In this document: piece after piece, positions 11,870 through 64,000 of the stretch
Layout of the letters: each line of letters begins with the position of its first letter
Position numbering within the stretch: the first letter of the stretch is position 1
Assembly (NCBI GenBank): GCA_964016885.1
Contig: OZ024742.1
Span: 92,690,001 to 92,754,000 of the forward strand
DNA length: 64,000 nucleotides
DNA from: Eledone cirrhosa
Taxonomy: Eukaryota
Direction of reading: 5' to 3'
Made by a program: the position numbers and the translations under genes
The notes under the pieces: model-generated
What the model saw: only the letters and a program-made list of their open reading frames with translations
Databases searched by the model: none
Told to the model about the DNA's origin: nothing

Positions 11870-12241
11870 CACACACATATATATATATATATATATACAT
11901 ATATATAGTAATAATAATAAATTTGAAGACTAAAATCCAAAGAGGGCTCGATAAGGAGAAATATATATCAAATATATAAGAACCGTAGAGCAAATATTTA
12001 TTAAAATAACAGATTAAAGTTTAAGCAAAGAATCGCTGCTTTCACCCTTAACGGGATCTTCTGAAACTAACAAAGTCAATCTGTAAACGCAGAACTGGAT
12101 ATTTCAAAAAACGTTGCAACCGGAGGAAGACAGGAAGACGATACTTTGGTTCGTGGAAATGTTCGCTATGCAAATAAGTAAAGGAATAAACAAAAACTTA
12201 GCTCCCACATCAAGACATAAAATATCCACGTATAGATCGTA

Positions 12242-12830
12242 CTATCCGTTAGGGTATAACGTGGGGCTGTAGTACAGGAAAGTTTTGTGCAATTTATGTT
12301 TACAAGCCGAAATTGCCTCAGATTTTTTGTTTAAGATGTGGTCTGTGGTGTAGAGTATTTCCAGGGCCTCAGCGGCGCAGCGGTCACATGGTCTTTTATT
12401 TCCGTTATACGATCTAGCCCTAGCTAGGATCTCCCAGTGTAACTTATATTGGGTGTGGTTGTCTTTTAGACTCCAGATATAAGCTGAAAGTGACGTCATA
12501 TTCCTTCTTAGAGGGTAACGAAAAGAATGGGTATGCATGTAAAGACGCTGCTTGAAACTATTGGCGGTTAACCCTATGTAGGCCCTACGGGACGTGGGTG
12601 TTACAACCTTACATTTGTAGACAATGTTACTAGAGAGGCATTTCCCAGATAGGGGGCAATCAGCCCAATTCCTACAATTACAGTTAGTACTAACTACAGA
12701 GTTGCACGTGTTCCTACGGCTAGGTAGTTTAGCTAAATTTGAAGCTGTGATGTTATGTGCAAGGTTAGGAGTCGTAGAGTAAGAAATTTTAATAGTATTT
12801 CTATTAAAAATTTTACTATATTTATGTGTA
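12242..12830 (-). pseudogene. PLE C-terminal Cys linker + GIY-YIG endonuclease fragment
   Basis: HKYSKIFNRNTIKISYSTTPNL...CNCRNWADCPLSGKCLSSNIVYKC...AYIGLTANSFKQR; collinear with the C-terminus of 60301-62400. Confidence 0.9.
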
Positions 12831-13321
12831 GTTTCAAGCAGCGTCTTTACATGCATACCCATTCTTTTCATTACCCTCTAAGAAGGAATATGACGTCACT
12901 TTTAGCTTATATCTGGAGTCTAAAAGACAACCACACCCAATATAAGTTACACTGAGAGATCCTAGCTAGGGCTAGATCGTATAATGGAAATAAAAGACCA
13001 TGTGACCTCTGCGCCGCTGAGGCCCTGGAAATACTCTACGCCACAGACCACATCTTAAACAAAAAAATCTGAGGCAATTTCGGCTTGCAAACATAAATTG
13101 CACAAAACTTTCCTGTACTACAGCCCCACGTTATACCCTAACGGATAGTACGATCTATACGTGGATATTTTACGTCTTGATGTGGGAGCTAAGTTTTTGT
13201 TTATTCCTTTACTTATTTGCATAGCGAACGTTTCCACGAACCAAAGTATCGTCTTCCTGTCTTCCTCCGGCTGCAACGTTTTTTGAAATATCCAGTTCTG
13301 CGTTTACAGATTGACTTTGTT

Positions 13322-13372
13322 AGTTTCAGAAGATCCTGTTAAGGGTGAAAGCAGCGATTCTTTGCTTAAACT
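13322..13372 (+). ncRNA. Variant type I hammerhead-like motif in the PLE 3' region (mirror copy at 12018-12068, minus strand)
   Basis: agttt CAGAAGA stemII GAAA gca..tgc TT aaact; core has U4->A. Confidence 0.5.
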
Positions 13373-13403
13373 TTAATCTGTTATTTTAATAAATATACAT
13401 ATA

Positions 13404-16163
13404 AGAAATTGGAATAAATGCTCTGAAATAGCGATATATATGTGAATATAGACATAGAATATTCGAAAATATTCTGTATGTTTATAATAAACATTTTGAA
13501 GACCTAATCGCTATAGAATAGAATACGTCACGTATTACAATTAGATTCTCGATAAAAGCAAGGGAAGTAATCTACGCGTTTCATTCTTTTTAGAAATCAT
13601 CAGGACTACATATCCAGTGCTTTTATCGAGAATGACACAGCTAGAGACTTATAGAATACTTAGCTGTGTACAGGAACTGGTTTGAAAGAGCGGTTGCCGG
13701 TCCGGCAGAAATTAGAAATTGGAATAAATGCTCTGAAATAGCGATATATATGTGAATATAGACATAGAATATTCGAAAATATTCTGTATGTTTATAATAA
13801 ACATTTTGAAGACCTAATCGCTATAGAATAGAATACGTCACGTATTACAATTAGATTCTCGATAAAAGCAAGGGAAGTAATCTACGCGTTTCATTCTTTT
13901 TAGAAATCATCAGGACTACATATCCAGTGCTTTTATCGAGAATGACACAGCTAGAGACTTATAGAATACTTAGCTGTGTACAGGAACTGGTTTGAAAGAG
14001 CGGTTGCCGGTCCGGCAGAAATTAGAAATTGGAATAAATGCTCTGAAATAGCGATATATATGTGAATATAGACATAGAATATTCGAAAATATTCTGTATG
14101 TTTATAATAAACATTTTGAAGACCTAATCGCTATAGAATAGAATACGTCACGTATTACAATTAGATTCTCGATAAAAGCAAGGGAAGTAATCTACGCGTT
14201 TCATTCTTTTTAGAAATCATCAGGACTACATATCCAGTGCTTTTATCGAGAATGACACAGCTAGAGACTTATAGAATACTTAGCTGTGTACAGGAACTGG
14301 TTTGAAAGAGCGGTTGCCGGTCCGGCAGAAATTAGAAATTGGAATAAATGCTCTGAAATAGCGATATATATGTGAATATAGACATAGAATATTCGAAAAT
14401 ATTCTGTATGTTTATAATAAACATTTTGAAGACCTAATCGCTATAGAATAGAATACGTCACGTATTACAATTAGATTCTCGATAAAAGCAAGGGAAGTAA
14501 TCTACGCGTTTCATTCTTGACGTTTCATACGTGACGTATTCTATTCTATAGCGATTAGGTCTTCAAAATGTTTATTATAAACATACAGAATATTTTCGAA
14601 TATTCTATGTCTATATTCACATATATATCGCTATTTCAGAGCATTTATTCCAATTTCTAATTTCTGCCGGACCGGCAACCGCTCTTTCAAACCAGTTCCT
14701 GTACACAGCTAAGTATTCTATAAGTCTCTAGCTGTGTCATTCTCGATAAAAGCACTGGATATGTAGTCCTGATGATTTCTAAAAAGAATGAAACGCGTAG
14801 ATTACTTCCCTTGCTTTTATCGAGAATCTAATTGTAATACGTGACGTATTCTATTCTATAGCGATTAGGTCTTCAAAATGTTTATTATAAACATACAGAA
14901 TATTTTCGAATATTCTATGTCTATATTCACATATATATCGCTATTTCAGAGCATTTATTCCAATTTCTAATTTCTGCCGGACCGGCAACCGCTCTTTCAA
15001 ACCAGTTCCTGTACACAGCTAAGTATTCTATAAGTCTCTAGCTGTGTCATTCTCGATAAAAGCACTGGATATGTAGTCCTGATGATTTCTAAAAAGAATG
15101 AAACGCGTAGATTACTTCCCTTGCTTTTATCGAGAATCTAATTGTAATACGTGACGTATTCTATTCTATAGCGATTAGGTCTTCAAAATGTTTATTATAA
15201 ACATACAGAATATTTTCGAATATTCTATGTCTATATTCACATATATATCGCTATTTCAGAGCATTTATTCCAATTTCTAATTTCTGCCGGACCGGCAACC
15301 GCTCTTTCAAACCAGTTCCTGTACACAGCTAAGTATTCTATAAGTCTCTAGCTGTGTCATTCTCGATAAAAGCACTGGATATGTAGTCCTGATGATTTCT
15401 AAAAAGAATGAAACGCGTAGATTACTTCCCTTGCTTTTATCGAGAATCTAATTGTAATACGTGACGTATTCTATTCTATAGCGATTAGGTCTTCAAAATG
15501 TTTATTATAAACATACAGAATATTTTCGAATATTCTATGTCTATATTCACATATATATCGCTATTTCAGAGCATTTATTCCAATTTCTAATTTCTGCCGG
15601 ACCGGCAACCGCTCTTTCAAACCAGTTCCTGTACACAGCTAAGTATTCTATAAGTCTCTAGCTGTGTCATTCTCGATAAAAGCACTGGATATGTAGTCCT
15701 GATGATTTCTAAAAAGAATGAAACGCGTAGATTACTTCCCTTGCTTTTATCGAGAATCTAATTGTAATACGTGACGTATTCTATTCTATAGCGATTAGGT
15801 CTTCAAAATGTTTATTATAAACATACAGAATATTTTCGAATATTCTATGTCTATATTCACATATATATCGCTATTTCAGAGCATTTATTCCAATTTCTAA
15901 TTTCTGCCGGACCGGCAACCGCTCTTTCAAACCAGTTCCTGTACACAGCTAAGTATTCTATAAGTCTCTAGCTGTGTCATTCTCGATAAAAGCACTGGAT
16001 ATGTAGTCCTGATGATTTCTAAAAAGAATGAAACGCGTAGATTACTTCCCTTGCTTTTATCGAGAATCTAATTGTAATACGTGACGTATTCTATTCTATA
16101 GCGATTAGGTCTTCAAAATGTTTATTATAAACATACAGAATATTTTCGAATATTCTATGTCTA
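13404..16163. repeat. 310-bp-unit tandem array with central inversion (3.6 units + 5.3 inverted units); retrozyme-like
   Basis: Period 310 (13411, 13721, 14031, 14341); orientation switch at 14518-14527; units look identical by eye. Confidence 0.95.
14763..14805 (+). ncRNA. Minimal type I hammerhead ribozyme of the 310-bp unit (plus copies at 14763, 15073, 15383, 15693, 16003; minus copies at 13567, 13877, 14187)
   Basis: gtagtc CTGATGA tttctaaaaagaat GAAA cgcg TA gattac: 6-bp stem I, palindromic stem III ACGCGT, GUA site; further 16-bp helix attctcgataaaagca/tgcttttatcgagaat. Confidence 0.9.
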
Positions 16164-16164
16164 A

Positions 16165-16201
<37 letters not shown>

Positions 16202-20245: not shown

Positions 20246-21517
20246 ATCAACCTCATCACCATTTAATATATATTTTCCATGCTTGCATGGGTTTGATGGG
20301 TTGTCCACGTTATGAGACAAGTCTGGCCAGTTGGCCAAGCCATATTTGGTCCAAACGGAACTGTATTTTGGTTGGGTTTTTTTTTACAGGTGGATGCCCT
20401 TTCTAACAGTAACCCCGTTTACAGTGTGTCACTGGGTGGACCTGTTATGAGGAGTCTAGTCAGTTGGCTGCACCATACCTTGCTCATAGCAGAACTGTAT
20501 TTTGGGAGCAGGGTGGTCCTGTTATGAGGAAGGTCTGGCCAGTTGGCCACACCATACCTTGCTTATAGTGGGACCATGTTTTAGCTGGGTGCCCTTCCTA
20601 ACACCAACCACATTTACAGTGTGGGACTGGGTGCTGTTGTGTAAAATTAATGTGCATGAACAACGAAGCATGGATGGGCTGAGAGAAACTTGTGCTGGTA
20701 CAGACATGTAATTCATATGGATGAAGGTTGATGGGTGAAGAATTGCCAGTAGTTCTAAGTGAAAGGAAATCGTAGAAAACCAAGACCTGAGCTGAGGCAA
20801 TGAAAGGAAATGACAAAGGAAATAGACAAGTGGAAAGATGCAGTACTAGAGAGGACTTATCTAACCTATGATGGCATGAAAAAACAAGCATAAAAACAGT
20901 GATGATGATGATGTCTGTAGATGTGTATGTATATATTACAGTACACATGTATAGATGTTTATGTATGTTTATATTACAGTACATGAAATGATTACAAGTA
21001 AAAGATCAATATGATCGACCGAAAACCCTTGAAGGCGCCCCCAGCATGGCCACAGTGCTATGGCTGAAACCAGTATAAAAAAATTAAAAAATTTAATGAT
21101 TCAACAAAATATTTCTCCAGAACACCACTACTAAAAAAAATGACATGCATACATTCATATCTGTGTTTACATGTAGTTCTATATATGTCCTGTAAGTTAG
21201 TAATTTGACAAAAAGAGAGACAAAATAAGTACCAGACTTGAAAAAATAGTAATGGGGTCAATATGATTGATTAAATCCATTTAAAGTGGTGCCTCAGCAT
21301 GGCCACAGTTTAATGACAGAAACCAGTAAAGGAAATACAAAAATATAAGAAAAGAATCTAAGTTACTGCAGTAGTGTGGTGTTGGTGGCAGTGGTTAGTG
21401 TTATGGAGATGTGATGGTGGTGATGATAGTGGTTAGTGTTGTTATGAAGATGTGGAGGTATCAGGAAATGTATATATTTAATGTAGTTATTATATATATA
21501 TATATATATATATATAA

Positions 21518-22388
21518 ATGAGCGGAACAAGCAAACAGTAAACAATCTTTTAAATAAATCAAAATACAATTAAATATTCACCTGTTCTAATGCTGTTACC
21601 GATGGTTTCGCTTATCAAAAGATTGGAAATTCAGAGAATTTCCAATGGAAAGATCAGCTCTTCAGACAGCTATTTCCATTCTATAGGGCATAAAGCCTCA
21701 CAGTTTGTAAATATATCACTTCCTGCCCGATGTATGAGGTCAGGCCGTTAAAGTGACCCACACATAAACAGGCGCAAGTAAAAGCGGGAATATTATAGAC
21801 TCGTCTTTCATGCTACTAAAAAAAATAGCAGCACGATACAACATTTTTTTCTTTACACAACGGGAGAATACACATAAAATAAGATAAATATTCCAACAGG
21901 TAATAAGTACCTACGGAAATATATATGGTGTCTATAATAATTGTTGTTCAATGGTACTAATTTGAGATACCAGAACTACAAAAATGAGTGGAACAAGCAA
22001 ACATTAAACAATCTTTTAAATAAATTAAAATACGATTAAATATTCACCTGTTCTAATGCTGTTACCGACGGTTTCGCTTATCAAAAGATTGGAAATTCAG
22101 AGAATTTCCAATGGAAGAGCTGATCTTTCCTATAGAATGGAAATAGCTGTCTGAAGAGCTGACCTTTCCATTGGAAATTCTCTGAATTTCCAATCTTTTG
22201 ATAAGCGAAACCATCGGTAACAGCATTAGAACAGGTGAATATTTAATCGTATTTTACTTTATTTAAAAGATTGTTTAATGTTTGCTTGTTCCGGTATCTC
22301 AAATTAATACCATTGACCAACAATTATTAAAGACACCATATATATTACCGTAGGTACTTAGTACCTGTTGGAATATTTATCTCATTTT
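21518..22388. mobile_element. HHR-bearing ~466-bp-unit element: 1.3 units minus sense plus an inverted plus-sense arm
   Basis: atgag(c/t)ggaacaagc repeats at 21518 and 21984; 22117-22388 is the reverse complement; left end abuts (TA)n. Confidence 0.85.
22146..22224 (+). ncRNA. Type I hammerhead ribozyme with extended stem II (mirror copy ~21592-21670, minus strand)
   Basis: gctgt CTGAAGA gct...agc GAAA ccatcgg TA acagc; GUA site. Confidence 0.88.
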
Positions 22389-22399
22389 TATAGAGAGAG

Positions 22400-22602
22400 A
22401 GGGGTCTTCCACAGAACTAGAACTGTTTCATTCGTAGGAAACCATCAGGGAAGTCCTTTCCTGATGATTTCATACAAATGAAATAGTTCTAGTCCTGTAA
22501 AAGTCATTTCTATATAAAATTTTAAATTACCTATACTCAACATAAGTACTGAGTACCTTTTTTAACTGTGGCTACCCTCCGACACAACTTGGGAATCTAC
22601 AT
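22400..22602. mobile_element. Diverged double-HHR mini-element related to 40923-41118, in opposite overall orientation
   Basis: ctgatgatttcatacaaatgaaatagttctagtcctgta with an inverted partial copy; 3' tail aligns by eye with the 40923 family. Confidence 0.7.
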
Positions 22603-23659
22603 ATTATATATATATATATATATGTATATTTATATTTATATGAATTGTAAAATGTCTAAACCCCATTGTGATTCCATGTATTGAGTATATTACACCTGGT
22701 ACCACAATATCAATATTGATTTTTGTTAAACAGTGATACAAGGCTACACATATTGGGAACAAGACAATAGCTGATTGAATCTACCTCATATTTTGTTGTT
22801 GTTGTTTTATTTTTACACTAACCCATGATTCTGAGGAAGTGAAATCCTCATGCTTTAAAGTAAATTAATACTTTCATTACTATATATCTAATGAGAGGTA
22901 TTGCCTATGATTTTCTATTAATTTTGAAAATTTGGAGCTATTTAATAATATAACTGGTGTTTGGAGCATAAATTAACAAAGGTTTTTACATAAAAATTAT
23001 GATAGAATTTTTTTTTAGAATAAATATAAACAATACAAAACAGTTGTGTAACTTTGGAAGCCAGTCGAATGGACTGTACCTGTATTTCAAAGGGCCAGCC
23101 TTCTCAAACTGTCATGTTCAATCTCCCTAAGAATTACATATGGGGACATGTGTATGTGGAATGTTCAGCCAATTACACTATAATACAAGATATGCTGTCT
23201 GTCCTTGTAATTCAACCTCCCTGAGAATTGCGTTAAGAATGCATGTGTCTGTGGAATGCACAGCCACTTACACTTTAATTCTATATGCAGGCTACTCCAC
23301 TGATCAAACAACTGGAACACTCATCCCTGTAACTGATAGATATCTATTCCATACCATTTCAATGTTACAAACATCAGGTTCATAATAAAAAAGTCATTTT
23401 ACCTAAATCACTAAAAATTGTTATTTTCAAAATTAATTGCAACACATGGCCAATATATTACATTAAAAGTATGGTCACAAAAGAATTAACTTTGGAAGGG
23501 TGAAAGGATTAACGCCTCAGAGGAATAAAAAGCTTAACTGTCTTGGCAGGGTGAAAAGAGTTAAAACATGGAAGGAAGAAAGGGTTAATGACTTGGAGGG
23601 ATAAAAATGGAAAGGTGAAAGTGTTAATAATCGGGGGGGGGGGGGGGGGTCGTTAACAT

Positions 23660-29357: not shown

Positions 29358-35563
<6,206 letters not shown>

Positions 35564-38248: not shown

Positions 38249-38254
38249 CATATA

Positions 38255-40922
<2,668 letters not shown>

Positions 40923-40923
<1 letters not shown>

Positions 40924-41118
40924 CGTTATTCCGGGTTGAATCGGAGGTAACCACAGTAAGTAAGGTACTCAATACATAGCAGAGTATAACAGTTTTAATA
41001 TAGATGAGATTCTACAGGACTAGTACTGTTTCATTCATTAGAAATCATCAGGAATCTGATGATTCCTGATGATTTCTAATGAATGAAACAGTTCTAGTCC
41101 TGTAGAATCTCATCTATA
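40923..41118. mobile_element. 196-bp mini-element with two divergent hammerheads (copies at 44001-44196 and 58569-58764)
   Basis: Minus HHR 41008-41056 and plus HHR 41061-41109: gattc CTGATGA tttctaatgaat GAAA cag..ctg TA gaatc. Confidence 0.88.
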
Positions 41119-41126
41119 TATATATC

Positions 41127-43938: not shown

Positions 43939-44001
<63 letters not shown>

Positions 44002-44204
44002 CGTTATTCCGGGTTGAATCGGAGGTAACCACAGTAAGTAAGGTACTCAATACATAGCAGAGTATAACAGTTTTAATATAGATGAGATTCTACAGGACTA
44101 GTACTGTTTCATTCATTAGAAATCATCAGGAATCTGATGATTCCTGATGATTTCTAATGAATGAAACAGTTCTAGTCCTGTAGAATCTCATCTATATATA
44201 TATC

Positions 44205-46596: not shown

Positions 46597-46909
<313 letters not shown>

Positions 46910-47543
46910 CATATAACGAAGGAAATGTGGTAAGGAACCAGGTGGACCATAACGCACCAAAGTACTCAATACTTGAGGTAGTAGAGTGGGTAATAGGGTC
47001 CTTGCCTTATTCGTCCCACCTAGTTCTCTTACTTATTTCCTTATTTATTCATTTATTTATTTTTTTACTTCTTTCTTTCTTTCTTTATTTTATTCTCGCC
47101 TAACAATAGCCTGACACCTAGGTCGTAGAATTTAATTTACTTTACTTTTCTTTACACTTATTTGCCTTTCTTCACTCTCAGTATTTTTTTTTTTTTTTCT
47201 TTCCTATTTCTACCCCCCATTGTTCTACCTACCGTTCCGACTTCCCCCCCTCCCCCTCCCCTGTATCTTCTTTGACCTCATGCCCAGCTGTAGCTGGCAC
47301 TACCAACGCTTGATTGGGTCTACTCCACCCCTCCCCTCTTTCTCCTACTGGCAGGTTTAGCCACCATCTCCCCTACTAATTTGCAACCACAGAATTACTA
47401 CTGATTTTTGACAATCACTTTGACCATATATGGAATTACCCCTTGAGAAGATCGGCTATTTAAATACCAGGATAAATTTTCATTTAGTCCAGAATTAGCC
47501 GTCGAAACGGCTTGAGCTCAGCTGTCGGGGTCTTACTGGTTCC

Positions 47544-47711
<168 letters not shown>

Positions 47712-48446: not shown

Positions 48447-48447
<1 letters not shown>

Positions 48448-51400
48448 ATTAAGTTAAAGATGTACATCCATATATGTATACTGAAATACTAGTATGTATA
48501 TGAATACACACACGTATACATATGTAGATGTACCAAGTTTTTTCACTGGTCACTTTACTGTGAGTGGCCAGCTATTCTGTATGTAAACACACAGACAAAC
48601 CGGTTTTTAGAGTCATACTGGTTTTTGAGGAAACACCTTTCCTCTATTCTCCAGAAAGCCAGACAAGGAATATTGAACTAGTTTCGTTGTTGTTACAACT
48701 CATCAGCAATATTTACCTATCTTCCGGCCTCTCTAGAGAATCGTAAAAGCACATATCGTTATATGCTTTTTCTATGAAAATTAGTAGTGGGCAGACTAAT
48801 TTGCATAGAGTGTGAGTAAGTACCGGTTCAACGGAGACGATAAAAACAAATAACGAAACGAAATTAAATTTCGTTTCGTTTGTAACTCACTTTTGTATGA
48901 CTGACGCTTAAACAATTAAGTTAAAGATGTACATCCATATATGTATACTGAAATACTAGTATGTATATGAATACACACACGTATACATATGTAGATGTAC
49001 CAAGTTTTTTCACTGGTCACTTTACTGTGAGTGGCCAGCTATTCTGTATGTAAACACACAGACAAACCGGTTTTTAGAGTCATACTGGTTTTTGAGGAAA
49101 CACCTTTCCTCTATTCTCCAGAAAGCCAGACAAGGAATATTGAACTAGTTTCGTTGTTGTTACAACTCATCAGCAATATTTACCTATCTTCCGGCCTCTC
49201 TAGAGAATCGTAAAAGCACATATCGTTATATGCTTTTTCTATGAAAATTAGTAGTGGGCAGACTAATTTGCATAGAGTGTGAGTAAGTACCGGTTCAACG
49301 GAGACGATAAAAACAAATAACGAAACGAAATTAAATTTCGTTTCGTTTGTAACTCACTTTTGTATGACTGACGCTTAAACAATTAAGTTAAAGATGTACA
49401 TCCATATATGTATACTGAAATACTAGTATGTATATGAATACACACACGTATACATATGTAGATGTACCAAGTTTTTTCACTGGTCACTTTACTGTGAGTG
49501 GCCAGCTATTCTGTATGTAAACACACAGACAAATCGGTTTTTAGAGTCATACTGGTTTTTGAGGAAACACCTTTCCTCTATTCTCCAGAAAGCCAGACAA
49601 GGAATATTGAACTAGTTTCGTTGTTGTTACAACTCATCAGCAATATTTACCTATCTTCCGGCCTCTCTAGAGAATCGTAAAAGCACATATCGTTATATGC
49701 TTTTTCTATGAAAATTAGTAGTGGGCAGACTAATTTGCATAGAGTGTGAGTAAGTACCGGTTCAACGGAGACGATAAAAACAAATAACGAAACGAAATTA
49801 AATTTCGTTTCGTTTGTAACTCACTTTTGTATGACTGACGCTTAAACAATTAAGTTAAAGATGTACATCCATATATGTATACTGAAATACTAGTATGTAT
49901 ATGAATACACACACGTATACATATGTAGATGTACCAAGTTTTTTCACTGGTCACTTTACTGTGAGTGGCCAGCTATTCTGTATGTAAACACACAGACAAA
50001 CCGGTTTTTAGAGTCATACTGGTTTTTGAGGAAACACCTTTCCTCTATTCTCCAGAAAGCCAGACAAGGAATATTGAACTAGTTTCGTTGTTGTTACAAC
50101 TCATCAGCAATATTTACCTATCTTCCGGCCTCTCTAGAGAATCGTAAAAGCACATATCGTTATATGCTTTTTCTATGAAAATTAGTAGTGGGCAGACTAA
50201 TTTGCATAGAGTGTGAGTAAGTACCGGTTCAACGGAGACGATAAAAACAAATAACGAAACGAAATTAAATTTCGTTTCGTTTGTAACTCACTTTTGTATG
50301 ACTGACGCTTAAACAATTAAGTTAAAGATGTACATCCATATATGTATACTGAAATACTAGTATGTATATGAATACACACACGTATACATATGTAGATGTA
50401 CCAAGTTTTTTCACTGGTCACTTTACTGTGAGTGGCCAGCTATTCTGTATGTAAACACACAGACAAACCGGTTTTTAGAGTCATACTGGTTTTTGAGGAA
50501 ACACCTTTCCTCTATTCTCCAGAAAGCCAGACAAGGAATATTGAACTAGTTTCGTTGTTGTTACAACTCATCAGCAATATTTACCTATCTTCCGGCCTCT
50601 CTAGAGAATCGTAAAAGCACATATCGTTATATGCTTTTTCTATGAAAATTAGTAGTGGGCAGACTAATTTGCATAGAGTGTGAGTAAGTACCGGTTCAAC
50701 GGAGACGATAAAAACAAATAACGAAACGAAATTAAATTTCGTTTCGTTTGTAACTCACTTTTGTATGACTGACGCTTAAACAATTAAGTTAAAGATGTAC
50801 ATCCATATATGTATACTGAAATACTAGTATGTATATGAATACACACACGTATACATATGTAGATGTACCAAGTTTTTTCACTGGTCACTTTACTGTGAGT
50901 GGCCAGCTATTCTGTATGTAAACACACAGACAAACCGGTTTTTAGAGTCATACTGGTTTTTGAGGAAACACCTTTCCTCTATTCTCCAGAAAGCCAGACA
51001 AGGAATATTGAACTAGTTTCGTTGTTGTTACAACTCATCAGCAATATTTACCTATCTTCCGGCCTCTCTAGAGAATCGTAAAAGCACATATCGTTATATG
51101 CTTTTTCTATGAAAATTAGTAGTGGGCAGACTAATTTGCATAGAGTGTGAGTAAGTACCGGTTCAACGGAGACGATAAAAACAAATAACGAAACGAAATT
51201 AAATTTCGTTTCGTTTGTAACTCACTTTTGTATGACTGACGCTTAAACAATTAAGTTAAAGATGTACATCCATATATGTATACTGAAATACTAGTATGTA
51301 TATGAATACACACACGTATACATATGTAGATGTACCAAGTTTTTTCACTGGTCACTTTACTGTGAGTGGCCAGCTATTCTGTATGTAAACACACAGACAA

Positions 51401-54400
51401 ACCGGTTTTTAGAGTCATACTGGTTTTTGAGGAAACACCTTTCCTCTATTCTCCAGAAAGCCAGACAAGGAATATTGAACTAGTTTCGTTGTTGTTACAA
51501 CTCATCAGCAATATTTACCTATCTTCCGGCCTCTCTAGAGAATCGTAAAAGCACATATCGTTATATGCTTTTTCTATGAAAATTAGTAGTGGGCAGACTA
51601 ATTTGCATAGAGTGTGAGTAAGTACCGGTTCAACGGAGACGATAAAAACAAATAACGAAACGAAATTAAATTTCGTTTCGTTTGTAACTCACTTTTGTAT
51701 GACTGACGCTTAAACAATTAAGTTAAAGATGTACATCCATATATGTATACTGAAATACTAGTATGTATATGAATACACACACGTATACATATGTAGATGT
51801 ACCAAGTTTTTTCACTGGTCACTTTACTGTGAGTGGCCAGCTATTCTGTATGTAAACACACAGACAAACCGGTTTTTAGAGTCATACTGGTTTTTGAGGA
51901 AACACCTTTCCTCTATTCTCCAGAAAGCCAGACAAGGAATATTGAACTAGTTTCGTTGTTGTTACAACTCATCAGCAATATTTACCTATCTTCCGGCCTC
52001 TCTAGAGAATCGTAAAAGCACATATCGTTATATGCTTTTTCTATGAAAATTAGTAGTGGGCAGACTAATTTGCATAGAGTGTGAGTAAGTACCGGTTCAA
52101 CGGAGACGATAAAAACAAATAACGAAACGAAATTAAATTTCGTTTCGTTTGTAACTCACTTTTGTATGACTGACGCTTAAACAATTAAGTTAAAGATGTA
52201 CATCCATATATGTATACTGAAATACTAGTATGTATATGAATACACACACGTATACATATGTAGATGTACCAAGTTTTTTCACTGGTCACTTTACTGTGAG
52301 TGGCCAGCTATTCTGTATGTAAACACACAGACAAACCGGTTTTTAGAGTCATACTGGTTTTTGAGGAAACACCTTTCCTCTATTCTCCAGAAAGCCAGAC
52401 AAGGAATATTGAACTAGTTTCGTTGTTGTTACAACTCATCAGCAATATTTACCTATCTTCCGGCCTCTCTAGAGAATCGTAAAAGCACATATCGTTATAT
52501 GCTTTTTCTATGAAAATTAGTAGTGGGCAGACTAATTTGCATAGAGTGTGAGTAAGTACCGGTTCAACGGAGACGATAAAAACAAATAACGAAACGAAAT
52601 TAAATTTCGTTTCGTTTGTAACTCACTTTTGTATGACTGACGCTTAAACAATTAAGTTAAAGATGTACATCCATATATGTATACTGAAATACTAGTATGT
52701 ATATGAATACACACACGTATACATATGTAGATGTACCAAGTTTTTTCACTGGTCACTTTACTGTGAGTGGCCAGCTATTCTGTATGTAAACACACAGACA
52801 AACCGGTTTTTAGAGTCATACTGGTTTTTGAGGAAACACCTTTCCTCTATTCTCCAGAAAGCCAGACAAGGAATATTGAACTAGTTTCGTTGTTGTTACA
52901 ACTCATCAGCAATATTTACCTATCTTCCGGCCTCTCTAGAGAATCGTAAAAGCACATATCGTTATATGCTTTTTCTATGAAAATTAGTAGTGGGCAGACT
53001 AATTTGCATAGAGTGTGAGTAAGTACCGGTTCAACGGAGACGATAAAAACAAATAACGAAACGAAATTAAATTTCGTTTCGTTTGTAACTCACTTTTGTA
53101 TGACTGACGCTTAAACAATTAAGTTAAAGATGTACATCCATATATGTATACTGAAATACTAGTATGTATATGAATACACACACGTATACATATGTAGATG
53201 TACCAAGTTTTTTCACTGGTCACTTTACTGTGAGTGGCCAGCTATTCTGTATGTAAACACACAGACAAACCGGTTTTTAGAGTCATACTGGTTTTTGAGG
53301 AAACACCTTTCCTCTATTCTCCAGAAAGCCAGACAAGGAATATTGAACTAGTTTCGTTGTTGTTACAACTCATCAGCAATATTTACCTATCTTCCGGCCT
53401 CTCTAGAGAATCGTAAAAGCACATATCGTTATATGCTTTTTCTATGAAAATTAGTAGTGGGCAGACTAATTTGCATAGAGTGTGAGTAAGTACCGGTTCA
53501 ACGGAGACGATAAAAACAAATAACGAAACGAAATTAAATTTCGTTTCGTTTGTAACTCACTTTTGTATGACTGACGCTTAAACAATTAAGTTAAAGATGT
53601 ACATCCATATATGTATACTGAAATACTAGTATGTATATGAATACACACACGTATACATATGTAGATGTACCAAGTTTTTTCACTGGTCACTTTACTGTGA
53701 GTGGCCAGCTATTCTGTATGTAAACACACAGACAAACCGGTTTTTAGAGTCATACTGGTTTTTGAGGAAACACCTTTCCTCTATTCTCCAGAAAGCCAGA
53801 CAAGGAATATTGAACTAGTTTCGTTGTTGTTACAACTCATCAGCAATATTTACCTATCTTCCGGCCTCTCTAGAGAATCGTAAAAGCACATATCGTTATA
53901 TGCTTTTTCTATGAAAATTAGTAGTGGGCAGACTAATTTGTATAGAGTGTGAGTAAGTACCGGTTCAACGGAGACGATAAAAACAAATAACGAAACGAAA
54001 TTAAATTTCGTTTCGTTTGTAACTCACTTTTGTATGACTGACGCTTAAACAATTAAGTTAAAGATGTACATCCATATATGTATACTGAAATACTAGTATG
54101 TATATGAATACACACACGTATACATATGTAGATGTACCAAGTTTTTTCACTGGTCACTTTACTGTGAGTGGCCAGCTATTCTGTATGTAAACACACAGAC
54201 AAACCGGTTTTTAGAGTCATACTGGTTTTTGAGGAAACACCTTTCCTCTATTCTCCAGAAAGCCAGACAAGGAATATTGAACTAGTTTCGTTGTTGTTAC
54301 AACTCATCAGCAATATTTACCTATCTTCCGGCCTCTCTAGAGAATCGTAAAAGCACATATCGTTATATGCTTTTTCTATGAAAATTAGTAGTGGGCAGAC

Positions 54401-57400
54401 TAATTTGCATAGAGTGTGAGTAAGTACCGGTTCAACGGAGACGATAAAAACAAATAACGAAACGAAATTAAATTTCGTTTCGTTTGTAACTCACTTTTGT
54501 ATGACTGACGCTTAAACAATTAAGTTAAAGATGTACATCCATATATGTATACTGAAATACTAGTATGTATATGAATACACACACGTATACATATGTAGAT
54601 GTACCAAGTTTTTTCACTGGTCACTTTACTGTGAGTGGCCAGCTATTCTGTATGTAAACACACAGACAAACCGGTTTTTAGAGTCATACTGGTTTTTGAG
54701 GAAACACCTTTCCTCTATTCTCCAGAAAGCCAGACAAGGAATATTGAACTAGTTTCGTTGTTGTTACAACTCATCAGCAATATTTACCTATCTTCCGGCC
54801 TCACCGGTACTTACTCACACTCTATGCAAATTAGTCTGCCCACTACTAATTTTCATAGAAAAAGCATATAACGATATGTGCTTTTACGATTCTCTAGAGA
54901 GGCCGGAAGATAGGTAAATATTGCTGATGAGTTGTAACAACAACGAAACTAGTTCAATATTCCTTGTCTGGCTTTCTGGAGAATAGAGGAAAGGTGTTTC
55001 CTCAAAAACCAGTATGACTCTAAAAACCGGTTTGTCTGTGTGTTTACATACAGAATAGCTGGCCACTCACAGTAAAGTGACCAGTGAAAAAACTTGGTAC
55101 ATCTACATATGTATACGTGTGTGTATTCATATACATACTAGTATTTCAGTATACATATATGGATGTACATCTTTAACTTAATTGTTTAAGCGTCAGTCAT
55201 ACAAAAGTGAGTTACAAACGAAACGAAATTTAATTTCGTTTCGTTATTTGTTTTTATCGTCTCCGTTGAACCGGTACTTACTCACACTCTATGCAAATTA
55301 GTCTGCCCACTACTAATTTTCATAGAAAAAGCATATAACGATATGTGCTTTTACGATTCTCTAGAGAGGCCGGAAGATAGGTAAATATTGCTGATGAGTT
55401 GTAACAACAACGAAACTAGTTCAATATTCCTTGTCTGGCTTTCTGGAGAATAGAGGAAAGGTGTTTCCTCAAAAACCAGTATGACTCTAAAAACCGGTTT
55501 GTCTGTGTGTTTACATACAGAATAGCTGGCCACTCACAGTAAAGTGACCAGTGAAAAAACTTGGTACATCTACATATGTATACGTGTGTGTATTCATATA
55601 CATACTAGTATTTCAGTATACATATATGGATGTACATCTTTAACTTAATTGTTTAAGCGTCAGTCATACAAAAGTGAGTTACAAACGAAACGAAATTTAA
55701 TTTCGTTTCGTTATTTGTTTTTATCGTCTCCGTTGAACCGGTACTTACTCACACTCTATGCAAATTAGTCTGCCCACTACTAATTTTCATAGAAAAAGCA
55801 TATAACGATATGTGCTTTTACGATTCTCTAGAGAGGCCGGAAGATAGGTAAATATTGCTGATGAGTTGTAACAACAACGAAACTAGTTCAATATTCCTTG
55901 TCTGGCTTTCTGGAGAATAGAGGAAAGGTGTTTCCTCAAAAACCAGTATGACTCTAAAAACCGGTTTGTCTGTGTGTTTACATACAGAATAGCTGGCCAC
56001 TCACAGTAAAGTGACCAGTGAAAAAACTTGGTACATCTACATATGTATACGTGTGTGTATTCATATACATACTAGTATTTCAGTATACATATATGGATGT
56101 ACATCTTTAACTTAATTGTTTAAGCGTCAGTCATACAAAAGTGAGTTACAAACGAAACGAAATTTAATTTCGTTTCGTTATTTGTTTTTATCGTCTCCGT
56201 TGAACCGGTACTTACTCACACTCTATGCAAATTAGTCTGCCCACTACTAATTTTCATAGAAAAAGCATATAACGATATGTGCTTTTACGATTCTCTAGAG
56301 AGGCCGGAAGATAGGTAAATATTGCTGATGAGTTGTAACAACAACGAAACTAGTTCAATATTCCTTGTCTGGCTTTCTGGAGAATAGAGGAAAGGTGTTT
56401 CCTCAAAAACCAGTATGACTCTAAAAACCGGTTTGTCTGTGTGTTTACATACAGAATAGCTGGCCACTCACAGTAAAGTGACCAGTGAAAAAACTTGGTA
56501 CATCTACATATGTATACGTGTGTGTATTCATATACATACTAGTATTTCAGTATACATATATGGATGTACATCTTTAACTTAATTGTTTAAGCGTCAGTCA
56601 TACAAAAGTGAGTTACAAACGAAACGAAATTTAATTTCGTTTCGTTATTTGTTTTTATCGTCTCCGTTGAACCGGTACTTACTCACACTCTATGCAAATT
56701 AGTCTGCCCACTACTAATTTTCATAGAAAAAGCATATAACGATATGTGCTTTTACGATTCTCTAGAGAGGCCGGAAGATAGGTAAATATTGCTGATGAGT
56801 TGTAACAACAACGAAACTAGTTCAATATTCCTTGTCTGGCTTTCTGGAGAATAGAGGAAAGGTGTTTCCTCAAAAACCAGTATGACTCTAAAAACCGGTT
56901 TGTCTGTGTGTTTACATACAGAATAGCTGGCCACTCACAGTAAAGTGACCAGTGAAAAAACTTGGTACATCTACATATGTATACGTGTGTGTATTCATAT
57001 ACATACTAGTATTTCAGTATACATATATGGATGTACATCTTTAACTTAATTGTTTAAGCGTCAGTCATACAAAAGTGAGTTACAAACGAAACGAAATTTA
57101 ATTTCGTTTCGTTATTTGTTTTTATCGTCTCCGTTGAACCGGTACTTACTCACACTCTATGCAAATTAGTCTGCCCACTACTAATTTTCATAGAAAAAGC
57201 ATATAACGATATGTGCTTTTACGATTCTCTAGAGAGGCCGGAAGATAGGTAAATATTGCTGATGAGTTGTAACAACAACGAAACTAGTTCAATATTCCTT
57301 GTCTGGCTTTCTGGAGAATAGAGGAAAGGTGTTTCCTCAAAAACCAGTATGACTCTAAAAACCGGTTTGTCTGTGTGTTTACATACAGAATAGCTGGCCA

Positions 57401-57592
57401 CTCACAGTAAAGTGACCAGTGAAAAAACTTGGTACATCTACATATGTATACGTGTGTGTATTCATATACATACTAGTATTTCAGTATACATATATGGATG
57501 TACATCTTTAACTTAATTGTTTAAGCGTCAGTCATACAAAAGTGAGTTACAAACGAAACGAAATTTAATTTCGTTTCGTTATTTGTTTTTAT
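48447..57592. repeat. 467-bp-unit tandem array with central inversion (13.6 units + 6 inverted units); retrozyme-like
   Basis: Period 467 from the repeated ORFs; orientation switch at 54802/54803; (TA)n on both sides. Confidence 0.97.
54917..54961 (+). ncRNA. Minimal type I hammerhead of the 467-bp unit (6 plus copies; 14 minus copies, first at 48669-48713)
   Basis: aatattg CTGATGA gttgt aaca acaac GAAA ctag TT caatatt: 7-bp stem I, 5-bp stem II, palindromic ACTAGT stem III, GUU site. Confidence 0.9.
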
Positions 57593-58502: not shown

Positions 58503-58569
<67 letters not shown>

Positions 58570-58772
58570 CGTTATTCCGGGTTGAATCGGAGGTAACCAC
58601 AGTAAGTAAGGTACTCAATACATAGCAGAGTATAACAGTTTTAATATAGATGAGATTCTACAGGACTAGTACTGTTTCATTCATTAGAAATCATCAGGAA
58701 TCTGATGATTCCTGATGATTTCTAATGAATGAAACAGTTCTAGTCCTGTAGAATCTCATCTATATATATATC

Positions 58773-59584: not shown

Positions 59585-59685
<101 letters not shown>

Positions 59686-60073
59686 AATGAATAATAACAG
59701 GTAGACATCATAAAAAGGTAGTTTATTCCGTGTGCTTACAAGTGTTTCCACGGTGGTGCTGCAAATACTTGTGAATTTGCACGTAGCGGAACTAGGCTGC
59801 AGCACCACCGTGGAAACACTTGTAAGTACACGGAATAAACTACCTTTTTATGATGTCTACCTGTTATTATTCATTCTTTATATACACTCCGGAATACTGA
59901 AGGATCAGGAACTAAGTTTCTTGAACAATTCTTCCATAACTCGTAGAGTAACCTCTTACCGTACGTCAACCATATCCAGTGTAGTAATTAACCATCACTA
60001 TATCTTGGATAATCCTATACCTAATAATCGCCTCCTACACAGTTGAGCAACCACACCGACACACGGCATTAAT

Positions 60074-62400
60074 ATGGAAAGGCATCATATAGGTATGTCA
60101 CTTAAAAACATACCTATACCTAACAAAAGGGAATATATTCTCAGTATGATTCAACGCAGTAACGACTTCATTCGGCGTGTACGATGGAAAGCTTTCCACT
60201 TCGATAAAGGACGCGCCAGTCACTCGTCTGAATCATATGGTTTTAAATCATGTAAAAACCCACCACAAACCCTCACCTCGAAGCTTTCGAACAGGACTTA
60301 TTGAAAACTACCATGAACATTAAGTTCAACAGACATAGACATAATGAGCTGCAGAACAACATGAAAGCACTACTCCGAAGATTGCAAAATACCAATGGAA
60401 TTGTTGTGAAAGCTGACAAGACTTCTAACGTGTATACCATGGATATCGATACGTATAATAACTTCATACGCAACGAACTACACAAAAAATATAGAAAAAC
60501 AAATGAAACTACGCTAGCAAATATTAACAACGAGGCATATAAAGTGGTAAAGAATCTCAAGATAGACGATAGAACCGAGCCGATTATACCCGCTACCCCC
60601 ACCTTCAACCTGAAGGACCATAAGGTAAATGTTGACTCTAACCCTAAGATTAGACTTATATGCCCTTCTAAATCAGACATAGGGAAAATTAGTAAACATA
60701 TACTTGACAGAGTAATAACTCAAGTGAAAAAGAAAATTGAAATTAAATTATGGGGCAACACTAGCGAAGCAATTCGCTGGTTTAATAATGTTAAGAATAA
60801 GAATAAATCTAAGTTTATACAATTTGACATAGACGAATACTACTCTTCCATCTCACCAAGCACTTTACGTAAGGCCCTATCGTTTGCTAAGACCAATTCC
60901 GACATAACGGAGGACGAAATTAATATTATTCTCGAGGCTAGAAAAACCATTATTAAGTTCGATAACTGCTACTGGGAACGTAAGGACAGACCCACAAATT
61001 TCGATATTACCATGGGTTCCAACGACTCGGCGGAGGTCACGGATCTCGTGGGAATTTACATAGCCTACATATTACATAGTAGATTTAGTAATCTACAGGG
61101 GGGGATATACAGAGATGACGGGCTCTTATTAGTTAATAACTTGAATAACCAAAATCTTGAAAGGCTACGGAAAAATATTAGAAAATCTTTTAGTGAACTG
61201 GGTCTAAAAATAACATACGAATACAATCTTAAGGTAGTAAAATTTCTGGACGTAACTCTTAATTTAAATACCGGACAGATACGACCCTTCCACAAGGTAA
61301 ATGAGAACCTTACGTATATTGACTTTAACTCTAACCACCCACTCTCCATGATCAAATCAGTTCCCCGGAGTATTTCTCTTAAAATCTCTCGCCTATCGTC
61401 TAATTCTGATATTTTTAGCGAACATGCTGAATACTACAATAATGCATTAAGGAATGCTGACCACCGGGATACAATAGAATACATCGATAGTAATTTCCAC
61501 AACATGCATAGCTCTACACGTAATCAAGGTATACGTAACCGGGGGACTAAAACACAAGCACACACACACTGTACTACCAGACATACTAATAATAGAAGAT
61601 CACCACCAAATAAATCACGTTGTAGAAAGTATATCTGGTATAATCCTATTTTTAATGCCTCGATTAGTACAAAACTATCTCTTTCATTCTTTAAATTAAT
61701 CAATAAACACTTCCCTAGTTCCCATAAGTACAGCAAAATTCTGAACTCCAAAACTATTAGACTATCATACTCCACGGCACCAAACCTTGAAGCATACATA
61801 AAAAAACTTAACTTAAGGCAATTAAACAACTCTACAAAACAAAACATTTTAGTAACAGATGGGCAGAACGCAATATCTGCCTCCCAACCACTAAATGTGA
61901 GACGGGTATTGCACAACCCACCTGTACCGCTATCACAACCTATCCATGGAATACCCGCTACCCACAACAAAGCATGTAACTGCCATCTACCTGAAAGATG
62001 TCCATTGCAGAATGAATGCCTAAAGTCCAACATTGTTTACCAATGCACGGTTGAATCGGACGACCAGAAATGGTATTATATCGGATCTACCACCACATCG
62101 TTTAAATCTCGCTGGTACCGTCATCGATTCTCAATCAAACATCAGAATCACCGTTTTGTGACCACGCTCGCCAACAAGACCTGGCAACTCCGTGAACACA
62201 ACCAAGAGTTCACCTTAAAATGGGCTATACTTTCCAGCGCAAATGCATATCGGAGTGGTTTGAAGTACTGCAGGTTATGTAACCTTGAGCTATTTTACAT
62301 ACTAAAATCCCAAAACAAACTACTTAACGATAGAATTGAACGATCATTATACTGCAACCACAAACTAAAAGCTAAATTCTCTCACTATAAAATAACTTAA
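60074..62400 (+). CDS. PLE polyprotein: RT + Cys linker + GIY-YIG endonuclease, with one frameshift near 60270
   Basis: SLKNIPIP..RWKAFHF N-terminus; ADKT, FIQFDIDEYYSSI, ITMGSNDS, IYRDDGL, FLDVTL; CNC..CPL..CL; IVY..YYIG..FKSRWYRH; CRLC. Confidence 0.93.
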
Positions 62401-62892
62401 CATTCGAACCCGTAACTACAACACCACTTTCTAGCTAACAACCTTCTCTTCCCCCCACACTACAAGACAATACACTGCTTATCACTATACATGGTAACTC
62501 AGTACAACTCCTAGAATACTACTACAAAACCAAAAGTTCACTCACCACACATATTTATCTGTCCCCTCTCTACCTATATATCTCTCTCTACATCCATTAC
62601 ACTCTCTCTCTCTCACCTTTGACCTACCCCCCCTCTCAACATTTATGAACCTGCCCTCTGGGGCAATAAATAATTCCGACCTCAACTATCTGCGCATCTC
62701 TCCAAAAGTAACTAATAAAACCCCTACCATAACATTTTGATTAAGATATCTACAAGCCACTCTCTCCTACTTCTCCAACCCCTACATATCTTTCCTTCTC
62801 TCTCCTTCTTCCCTACTTTTCTCTCTTCCTGTTCCACTCTATCTTCCCCAACAACCCCACTTAAGGGTTTTTACATTGTATATTTACCATTC

Positions 62893-63004
62893 TGCTCTGA
62901 GGAAACAGTGGTCACAGCATTGGATATTCGAGTTCTGCAAATACTTGTGAATTTGCACGTAGCGGAACTAGGCTGCAGCACCACCGTGGAAACACTTGTA
63001 AGCA
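62893..63004 (+). ncRNA. Hammerhead-like motif with long stem II in the 3' pLTR
   Basis: tgct CTGAGGA aacagtggt...accaccgtg GAAA cacttg TA agca. Confidence 0.7.
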
Positions 63005-63203
63005 CACGGAATAAACTACCTTTTTATGATGTCTACCTGTTATTATTCATTCTTTATATACACTCCGGAATACTGAAGGATCAGGAACTAAGTTTCTTGA
63101 ACAATTCTTCCATAACTCGTAGAGTAACCTCTTACCGTACGTCAACCATATCCAGTGTAGTAATTAACCATCACTACATCTTGGATATTCCTATACCTAA
63201 TAT

Positions 63204-63336
<133 letters not shown>

Positions 63337-63345
63337 TTATATCTA

Positions 63346-63388
<43 letters not shown>

Positions 63389-63390
63389 AT

Positions 63391-64000
63391 ACATTATGAA
63401 GAGAGAAGAAACATTTAGATATAATTAGTAATAAAATGTATCATACCTAAACTGTTCCTAAATTCCTCGACTACGTAGTTTCGTGGCATAAACAAAAACA
63501 ATATATCAAAGATATAGAGTCCTTGCGAGGTCTGCCAACTTATCAAGAGGATACCTCATTTTACTAGTCTCAAGAACGCGTCTACACGACGTGAGAAAGA
63601 ATCCCAAAAGGCGGAGGGGGAGATAGTCACGCGATATAACGGTCGAGAAACAGAGCTAAGCCTCTTATAACCACGAAGAAAATACCACGGAGGCGGAGGG
63701 GGTATTCATATCGAGGCCGTAGAAGGGGTAGTGAAGAAGGCGAGAAGTATGAGTAATGGAAGCTTTCCAGTTGTCCCCACATTTCAAAGATTGCTCGACC
63801 AGAGGGAGTTATTAATATATTTAAAAACACACAGATACATGCGGACACACACATATATACATGAATGCATCCGCACCCAACTGTGAGTTAAGGGTGCCAA
63901 CTTCACCGATGTTGCTCAATGAATGACTGGGACAGACCAATTCAGTTTGAACCAGACTGAACCAGTATCAGAGTTAAAAATACATTATGAAGAGAGAAGA
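63391..64000 (-). mobile_element. Start of a probable further HHR-bearing tandem element, unit 591 bp
   Basis: acattatgaagagagaaga at 63391 recurs at 63982; left end abuts (TA)n. Confidence 0.7.
63464..63551 (-). ncRNA. Type I hammerhead with U3-A8 core variant
   Basis: Minus strand: tcctc TTGATAA gttggca...tgccac GAAA ctacgtag TC gagga; palindromic stem III, GUC site. Confidence 0.85.

Follow-up and report, generated by a model that had tools for sequence, protein, structure and literature searches.

What kind of element ends at the right edge of the 64,000-nt stretch of the Eledone cirrhosa genome analysed here (the window), where a hammerhead-like motif on the minus strand lies in a sequence that starts again after 591 bp? 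The initial annotation took this sequence for the left arm of a third tandem array and predicted further units and an inverted arm beyond position 64000. Here, the motif, the repeat unit, the family in public sequencing runs, the predicted RNA folding and the other hammerhead insertions of the window (Table 1) are considered together.

Table 1. Features at the right edge of the window and elsewhere in it; position 1 is the first letter of the window
Feature	Position	Strand	Basis or remark
Complete non-coding unit of 591 bp, with the RNA sense on the minus strand	63392..63982	minus	period, GC, frames, folding
Part of the next unit inside the window, 18 nt, up to the edge	63983..64000	minus	same head-to-tail joint in X1, X8, X9 and X10 contigs
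(TA)n target tract	63207..63391		sequence; last 3 nt (ATA) are shared with the adjoining unit
Type I hammerhead with U3-A8 core, long stem II, palindromic stem III	63464..63551	minus	descriptor, 0/2000 shuffles
Stem I 5' strand, UCCUC	63551-63547	minus	sequence
Core heptamer UUGAUAA	63540..63546	minus	sequence; U3 = 63546, A8 = 63541
Stem II region, 57 nt	63539-63483	minus	sequence
GAA	63482-63480	minus	sequence
Stem III ACUACGUAGU, 10-nt perfect palindrome	63479-63470	minus	sequence
Predicted cleavage site, after C17 of GUC	63468..63469	minus	position only; C17 = 63469
Stem I 3' strand, GAGGA	63468-63464	minus	sequence
Small 5' hairpin, predicted competitor of stem I	63547..63557	minus	probability ~0.9 in linear prefixes, 0.58 in circle
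Long 3' hairpin, predicted to sequester stem I 3' strand	63398..63468	minus	probability 0.93-0.97 in circle
Tentative second TA-abutting end, 168 nt beyond the first	63815	minus	TA-ended contigs
Penelope-like element, Hydra type	59677..63206	plus	RT + GIY-YIG-like frame 60256-62400
N-terminal part of the same element, other frame	60074-60289	plus	
Direct repeat of the same element, 271 bases	59756-60026 = 62932-63202		
C3-G8 hammerhead of the same element	62893-63004		85-nt stem II region
Two-armed 310-bp array	13401-16166		arms of 3.6 + 5.3 units; one hammerhead per unit
Two-armed insertion, CUGAAGA core, 466-base period	21517-22604		left arm ~1.3 units; right arm fused to 204-like element
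218-base elements, inverted derivatives of the 634-base element	start 36077, 41680, 44752		three copies
634-base U3-A8 element	38254-38888, 46909-47550		two copies; hammerheads 38776-38869, 47438-47531
204-base palindromic hammerhead elements	40923-41126, 44001-44204, 58569-58772		three identical, in TA tracts
Two-armed 467-bp array	48447-57589		arms of 13.6 + 6.0 units; 99.9% identical

Results

A hammerhead with a U3-A8 core on the minus strand

The motif comprises the N3-U-G-A-N-N8-A core, GAAA, a paired 3-8 position and a UH site (GUC), and its three stems surround the core with stem I open, which is the layout of a type I hammerhead. All five pairs of stem I are Watson-Crick, and stem II (6 bp plus extension) consists of a G-C and a U-A pair, a bulged U, four further pairs and a long extension. 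The call was made by a descriptor that permits any Watson-Crick 3-8 pair, and not by a library match: the descriptor found nothing on either strand in 2000 dinucleotide shuffles of 63392-64000 (609 bases), while Rfam, at gathering score, matched no hammerhead anywhere in the 64-kb window and, with E up to 10 in 62500-64000, returned weak miRNA-type matches far under the gathering score and no hammerhead. A 30-nt pattern taken from this hammerhead had 0 matches in the JGI metagenomes scanned.

The UUGAUAA core, the palindromic stem III and the GUC site are all found where the initial annotation had located them on the minus strand. Its description of the stems as intact holds with a reservation for stem III, of which the monomer forms only 3 bp, at a predicted +1.5 kcal/mol. 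It was also right to regard U3-A8 as a compensatory core pair, but this had been published before (PMC3088659; PMC4209133). Natural U3-A8 hammerheads were reported from a survey across the domains of life, wherein such variants are stated to have been shown active in vitro earlier (PMC3088659), and approximately 1,300 U3-A8 motifs in Schistosoma mansoni, having a short stem I, a long stem II, a palindromic stem III and low, dimer-dependent activity, were tied to the Penelope-like element Cercyon (PMC4209133). The U3-A8 swap is not new, and adds nothing to hammerhead chemistry.

The hammerhead reported here, known from sequence alone, has the same covariation of the 3-8 core pair as the natural examples of the survey (PMC3088659), and shares with those of Cercyon the U3-A8 pair, a 5-bp stem I, a long stem II with G10.1-C11.1, a palindromic stem III and a predicted activity as dimer; it differs from them in the 10-nt length of the palindrome and the bulge within stem II, and in that it lies in a stand-alone tandem unit, whereas the Cercyon motif lies in the terminal repeat of an RT-coding element (PMC4209133). 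A second U3-A8 hammerhead occurs in the same window in an unrelated 634-base element, with a UUGAGAA core, a 54-nt stem II region and a GUC site.

A non-coding 591-bp unit adjoining a TA tract

The first 19 nt of the element had been noted to recur 591 bp later, which is correct, and the exact match is in fact 21 nt long (63389-63409 = 63980-64000). The unit so defined has a GC content of 41%, and its longest ATG-started frames encode 75 aa on the minus strand and 45 aa on the plus strand. Animal non-LTR retrozymes are characterized by non-coding head-to-tail units of a few hundred bases, each with one type I hammerhead and a GC content below 50% (PMC7229834; bioRxiv 10.64898/2026.07.22.740005), and the 591-bp unit has all of these features. 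It adjoins the (TA)n tract with a 3-nt overlap, that is, it sits at a microsatellite target such as is used by Penelope-mobilised insertions.

The 591-bp family in public sequencing runs

Parts of the unit were contained in 20 of 24 public runs, under 17 organism codes, and eight runs were aligned to it. No RNA run with the unit is among the 24, which speaks neither for nor against expression. The joint 63982 -> 63392 is present in contigs of four of these eight, with 121 (X1), 248 (X8), 63 (X9) and 36 (X10) bases on its shorter side, and in both X1 and X8 a single contig of 620-621 nt spans the unit from end to end and runs back into its own start without branching into other sequence. The claim of a 591-bp head-to-tail unit is thus borne out at the family level, and the unit is real. 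Between the window copy and the X1 contig there are 4 differences in 591 bases. Run X3 holds 1593 contigs with many minor variants and a summed depth of the order of 1e5, which is not a copy number but is consistent with a high-copy 591-bp family.

In the six covering runs, at thresholds of 5% or 3%, the listed variants of the hammerhead spare the core and stems I and III; the only substitutions listed within the motif are at 63537, the bulged base of stem II, and in X3 the far arm of this stem is longer by an insertion of 2 bases. Therefore, given a core without listed variants in the covering runs, U3-A8 is the norm of the family and not a decay of the window copy. Strand-changing joints are listed in none of the eight aligned runs, which is uninformative, as contigs drop rare junctions.

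Near-identical copies of the unit occur at low depth in X1, X8, X9 and X10, under four other organism codes. The copies from organisms A, E, F and G have the same majority letters, and two further samples of organism G, the raw reads X22 and X23, are nearly empty, with 0 and 3 partly matching reads in about 1.9 billion letters each, too few to bear on the junctions. Carry-over between libraries from a high-copy species is probably the cause, being a simpler reading than horizontal transfer; a wide host range or horizontal transfer is not claimed, in view of the shared majority letters, the low depth and the near-empty samples of organism G. Therefore, the runs are not counted as independent species, and the joints may all come from one species.

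Predicted folding of the minus-strand RNA

The 591-bp unit folds better than its shuffles on the minus strand only (z = -5.7, against -0.7 on the plus strand), and therefore the hammerhead strand points to being the RNA strand. In the free fold of the 88-nt motif stem III does not form, while two copies could pair through it in a 10-bp duplex of -12.9 kcal/mol, and the pairing probability of this inter-copy stem III in the two-unit model is 0.79-0.94. For two units, the double hammerhead has a predicted energy of -230.2 kcal/mol, two single hammerheads -220.1 kcal/mol and the free minimum -237.4 kcal/mol, so that the double form gains 10 kcal/mol over two monomers, yet lies 7 kcal/mol above the free minimum. 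The predicted minimum is lower than the active fold by 1.6 kcal/mol in the 88-nt motif and by 7-8 kcal/mol in full context, in a model without tertiary contacts or proteins.

Once 90 nt of upstream sequence are included, the probability of stem I is at most 0.04, and its two strands are predicted to be engaged by the two hairpins of Table 1, the longer of which stops 6 nt before the insertion end. The unit monomer is thereby predicted to cleave poorly, which suits a stable circle, but the ribozyme may simply be weak. Among the 21 listed family variants, 4 break a predicted pair where 5.8 are expected (P = 0.24, not significant).

A Hydra-type Penelope-like element on the same TA tract

The TA tract adjoined by the 591-bp unit also bears, on its other side, a Penelope-like element with a 714-codon open frame that carries RT and GIY-YIG-like motifs and with a short inverted 5' arm of 82-87 bases. 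The N-terminal part lies in a different frame (shift near 60260-60290), and therefore this copy is frameshifted or mis-assembled. By its RWK, DKT, CxCX5C, terminal CxxC and CxH motifs, the C-terminal GIY-YIG and the hammerhead, it matches the Hydra clade, an assignment based on motifs; the target also fits, as Hydra-clade elements are reported to insert into (TA)n (PMC8557442). The identity of the element is also based on homologues: the 714-aa frame has 636 among 7539 candidates, with a best identity of 37%, a GIY-YIG match was found in one of the four homologues scanned, and Pfam gave no match in the frame. With this element, the genome is seen to contain TA-targeting machinery of this kind. 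The 591-bp unit has no detectable similarity to its terminal repeat (local score 26, against 21-29 in five other comparisons), and therefore the element, the sole autonomous candidate compared, cannot be named as the helper.

Other hammerhead insertions of the window

Seven other kinds of hammerhead-bearing insertion lie within or beside TA tracts in the 64-kb window, and six of them match themselves in inverted orientation, the exception being the 634-base element; the 83-base leader that this element shares with the 218-base elements may be read as an inverted tail. The two ends within these insertions differ by about 33-150 bases, as in the 467-bp array, wherein each unit carries one canonical minimal hammerhead and the right arm is 71 bases longer at its end. 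Arms of at least three units occur in only two of the seven kinds, and three left arms exceed one unit, with lengths of about 1.3, 3.6 and 13.6 units.

The polarity rule proposed in the initial annotation is correct insofar as, wherever both arms carry full motifs (the 310-bp, 467-bp and 21.5-kb insertions), these are antisense on the left and sense on the right, but it says nothing by itself about a second arm. A cDNA grown from the left cut end would be antisense on the top strand, and the polarity would follow from target priming; since priming at a left-hand TA tract would give a minus-strand RNA whether or not a second arm exists, the rule is weak evidence for one. Partial tandems, an inverted 5' copy and a one-sided tail are reported for Penelope insertions (PMC8557442), and the opposed-arm layout seen here is the published Penelope footprint (PMC8557442; PMC11167929).

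Several further resemblances were seen among these insertions and their surroundings. The hammerhead of the 310-bp array resembles that of the 204-base elements, and the array adjoins an inverted repeat (11994-12560 / 12829-13396). The 204-base elements are about 74% like the stretch 22407-22588, and their 75-base leader has a short motif in common with the leader of the 218/634-base elements. Between 36077 and 47550, a block of a 218-base element, a short TA tract and a 1388-base LINE-type RT fragment occurs three times at 99.9-100% identity, which could be a recent duplication or an assembly error in TA-rich DNA. Another LINE-type fragment lies between TA tracts at 32705-35412, with an RVT_1 match at 33868-34665.

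Discussion

A probable animal non-LTR retrozyme inserted into a TA repeat

We hold it quite probable that the locus contains one end, that adjoining the TA tract, of an insertion of a young 591-bp repeat without coding capacity, an animal non-LTR retrozyme that was copied by a Penelope-like RT-endonuclease into a nicked TA repeat. Multi-unit minus-strand transcripts would cleave after C63469, mainly as double hammerheads of neighbouring copies and perhaps with the help of a protein, and the 591-nt monomer would be circularised and stay uncut through the sequestering of stem I in the fold. The cut TA strand could then serve the enzyme as primer for a cDNA that would begin at a UA-rich site, 77 nt downstream of the cleavage site, and run past one unit, and the other cut strand would probably prime a second, inverted arm beyond 64000.

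Several published observations bear on these steps. The animal non-LTR retrozymes give rise to RNAs in linear as well as circular form, and for some of them cleavage is best in the dimer (PMC7229834), and retrozymes track Penelope-like elements (bioRxiv 10.64898/2026.07.22.740005). A purified Penelope-like protein is reported to cut and extend both strands and to start internally on the RNA, the Penelope tail being the stretch between two RT start sites (PMC11167929). The same protein in vitro uses unprocessed RNA, and hammerhead mutants leave insertion unaffected (PMC11167929), while only one of nine Xenopus retrozyme dimers was cleaved in vitro (bioRxiv 10.64898/2026.07.22.740005); the eight uncut dimers and the ineffective mutants therefore argue against a central role of the ribozyme.

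A more specific version, which we put forward tentatively and hold at somewhat under even chances, is a self-regulating circle, wherein the hammerhead of the monomer would be locked by the two competing hairpins and fire when copies pair in a multi-unit transcript, and a dimer of the Penelope-type enzyme would copy the circle repeatedly from both cut TA strands at two fixed UA-rich starts 168 nt apart. If so, more units would follow beyond 64000, and the inverted end would lie at the base equivalent to 63815.

Alternative explanations

Least compatible with the data is the reading that the motif is a look-alike, arisen by chance or left by decay, within an ordinary satellite. The silence of Rfam and the free fold of the 88-nt motif, in which stem III is missing, would fit such a reading, whereas the absence of the pattern from the shuffles, the agreement of every core position, the strand-specific folding and an unrelated element of the window with the same design of U3-A8, long stem II and GUC speak against it, and we consider it highly improbable. 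Alternatively, a longer Penelope-like element, autonomous or deleted, might lie on the minus strand with the unit as its 3' terminal repeat, and about one pseudo-LTR unit would then precede the element body beyond 64000. Penelope terminal repeats do carry such hammerheads, those with U3-A8 included (PMC4209133), and form partial tandems (PMC8557442); moreover, the window contains only 18 nt of a second unit, and one left arm in it ends at about 1.3 units. Against this, the X1 and X8 contigs close the 591-nt unit on itself unbranched, and the unit lacks a long reading frame, which makes a terminal repeat improbable.

A further possibility accepts the retrozyme but not the RNA circle: the tandems would grow as DNA, by unequal crossover or slippage, or come from linear multi-unit transcripts, with the hammerhead as a passenger. 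Satellite-type expansion is the model of a recent preprint (bioRxiv 10.64898/2026.07.22.740005), and both the predicted sequestering of stem I and the Penelope-like protein that accepts unprocessed RNA and needs no hammerhead cleavage in vitro (PMC11167929) would agree with a passenger. Crossover alone is insufficient, however, for the units of the other two arrays, which are 99.9% identical in opposed arms with unequal ends, and the core without listed variants in a deep, variable 591-bp family argues against a passenger; none of these points argues against the version with linear multimers. Taken as a whole, we regard this alternative as unlikely, and keep to the retrozyme copied by a Penelope-like enzyme into the TA tract.

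Beyond position 64000

An inverted partner arm beyond 64000 is likely by analogy, because six of the seven other kinds of hammerhead insertion in the window have one. At least one further full 591-bp unit is also likely to follow, if a little less so, and of further full units or a long array we are less sure than of the inverted partner. As for the far end of the right arm, TA repeats stand directly before 63815 in four X3 contigs and before 63814 in one X10 contig; 63815 lies 245 nt downstream of the predicted cleavage site, in a UA-rich stretch that follows a long hairpin and is predicted to be single-stranded. This signal is weakened by chance low-complexity matches in the window that likewise begin at 63815, and we favour, by a modest degree, that 63815 is a second end used by other copies, at which the right arm would terminate. 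The prediction made for the region beyond 64000 is plausible, and it largely restates the known anatomy of Penelope insertions.

Relation to known retrozymes and Penelope-like insertions

With 591 bp, the unit falls within the retrozyme range of 51-972 bp given in the preprint (bioRxiv 10.64898/2026.07.22.740005), and exceeds the RNAs of 170-400 nt tested in coral, mussel and axolotl (PMC7229834). Its U3-A8 core and 57-nt stem II region would escape a CUGANGA descriptor. Insertion into TA tracts and inverted arms are unmentioned in the main text of PMC7229834 and of the preprint (bioRxiv 10.64898/2026.07.22.740005), as far as this text was accessible, the word 'inverted' occurring there 0 times in the former and once, in a reference title, in the latter. 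Descriptions of two-armed retrozyme arrays or of cephalopod retrozymes were not found by title or abstract start, in a search outside which most subscription papers lie.

The TA target, the inverted arms with unequal ends of the window's other insertions and the internal RT start are shared with Penelope-like insertions (PMC8557442; PMC11167929). The published Penelope tail measures 30-40 bp, compared with end offsets here of about 33-150 nt and, tentatively, 168 nt for the 591-bp family; and arms of many perfect units, as in the arrays of the window, are not described for Penelope-like insertions in the accessible text of these two papers (PMC8557442; PMC11167929).

In conclusion, the 591-bp element adds a new example to a kind of element already known, and its headline variant has been published. 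Retrozyme surveys that use a CUGANGA core and a short stem II would miss the abundant 591-bp family as well as the second U3-A8 family of the window; therefore, retrozyme counts are probably too low. More-than-unit reverse transcription of circular RNA has stood as a proposal since 2014, and to a test of it the truncated 591-bp copy at the window edge contributes less than complete arrays would. Young two-armed arrays with fixed ends, as a class, represent a natural test of whether a Penelope-type enzyme reverse transcribes circular RNA beyond one unit.
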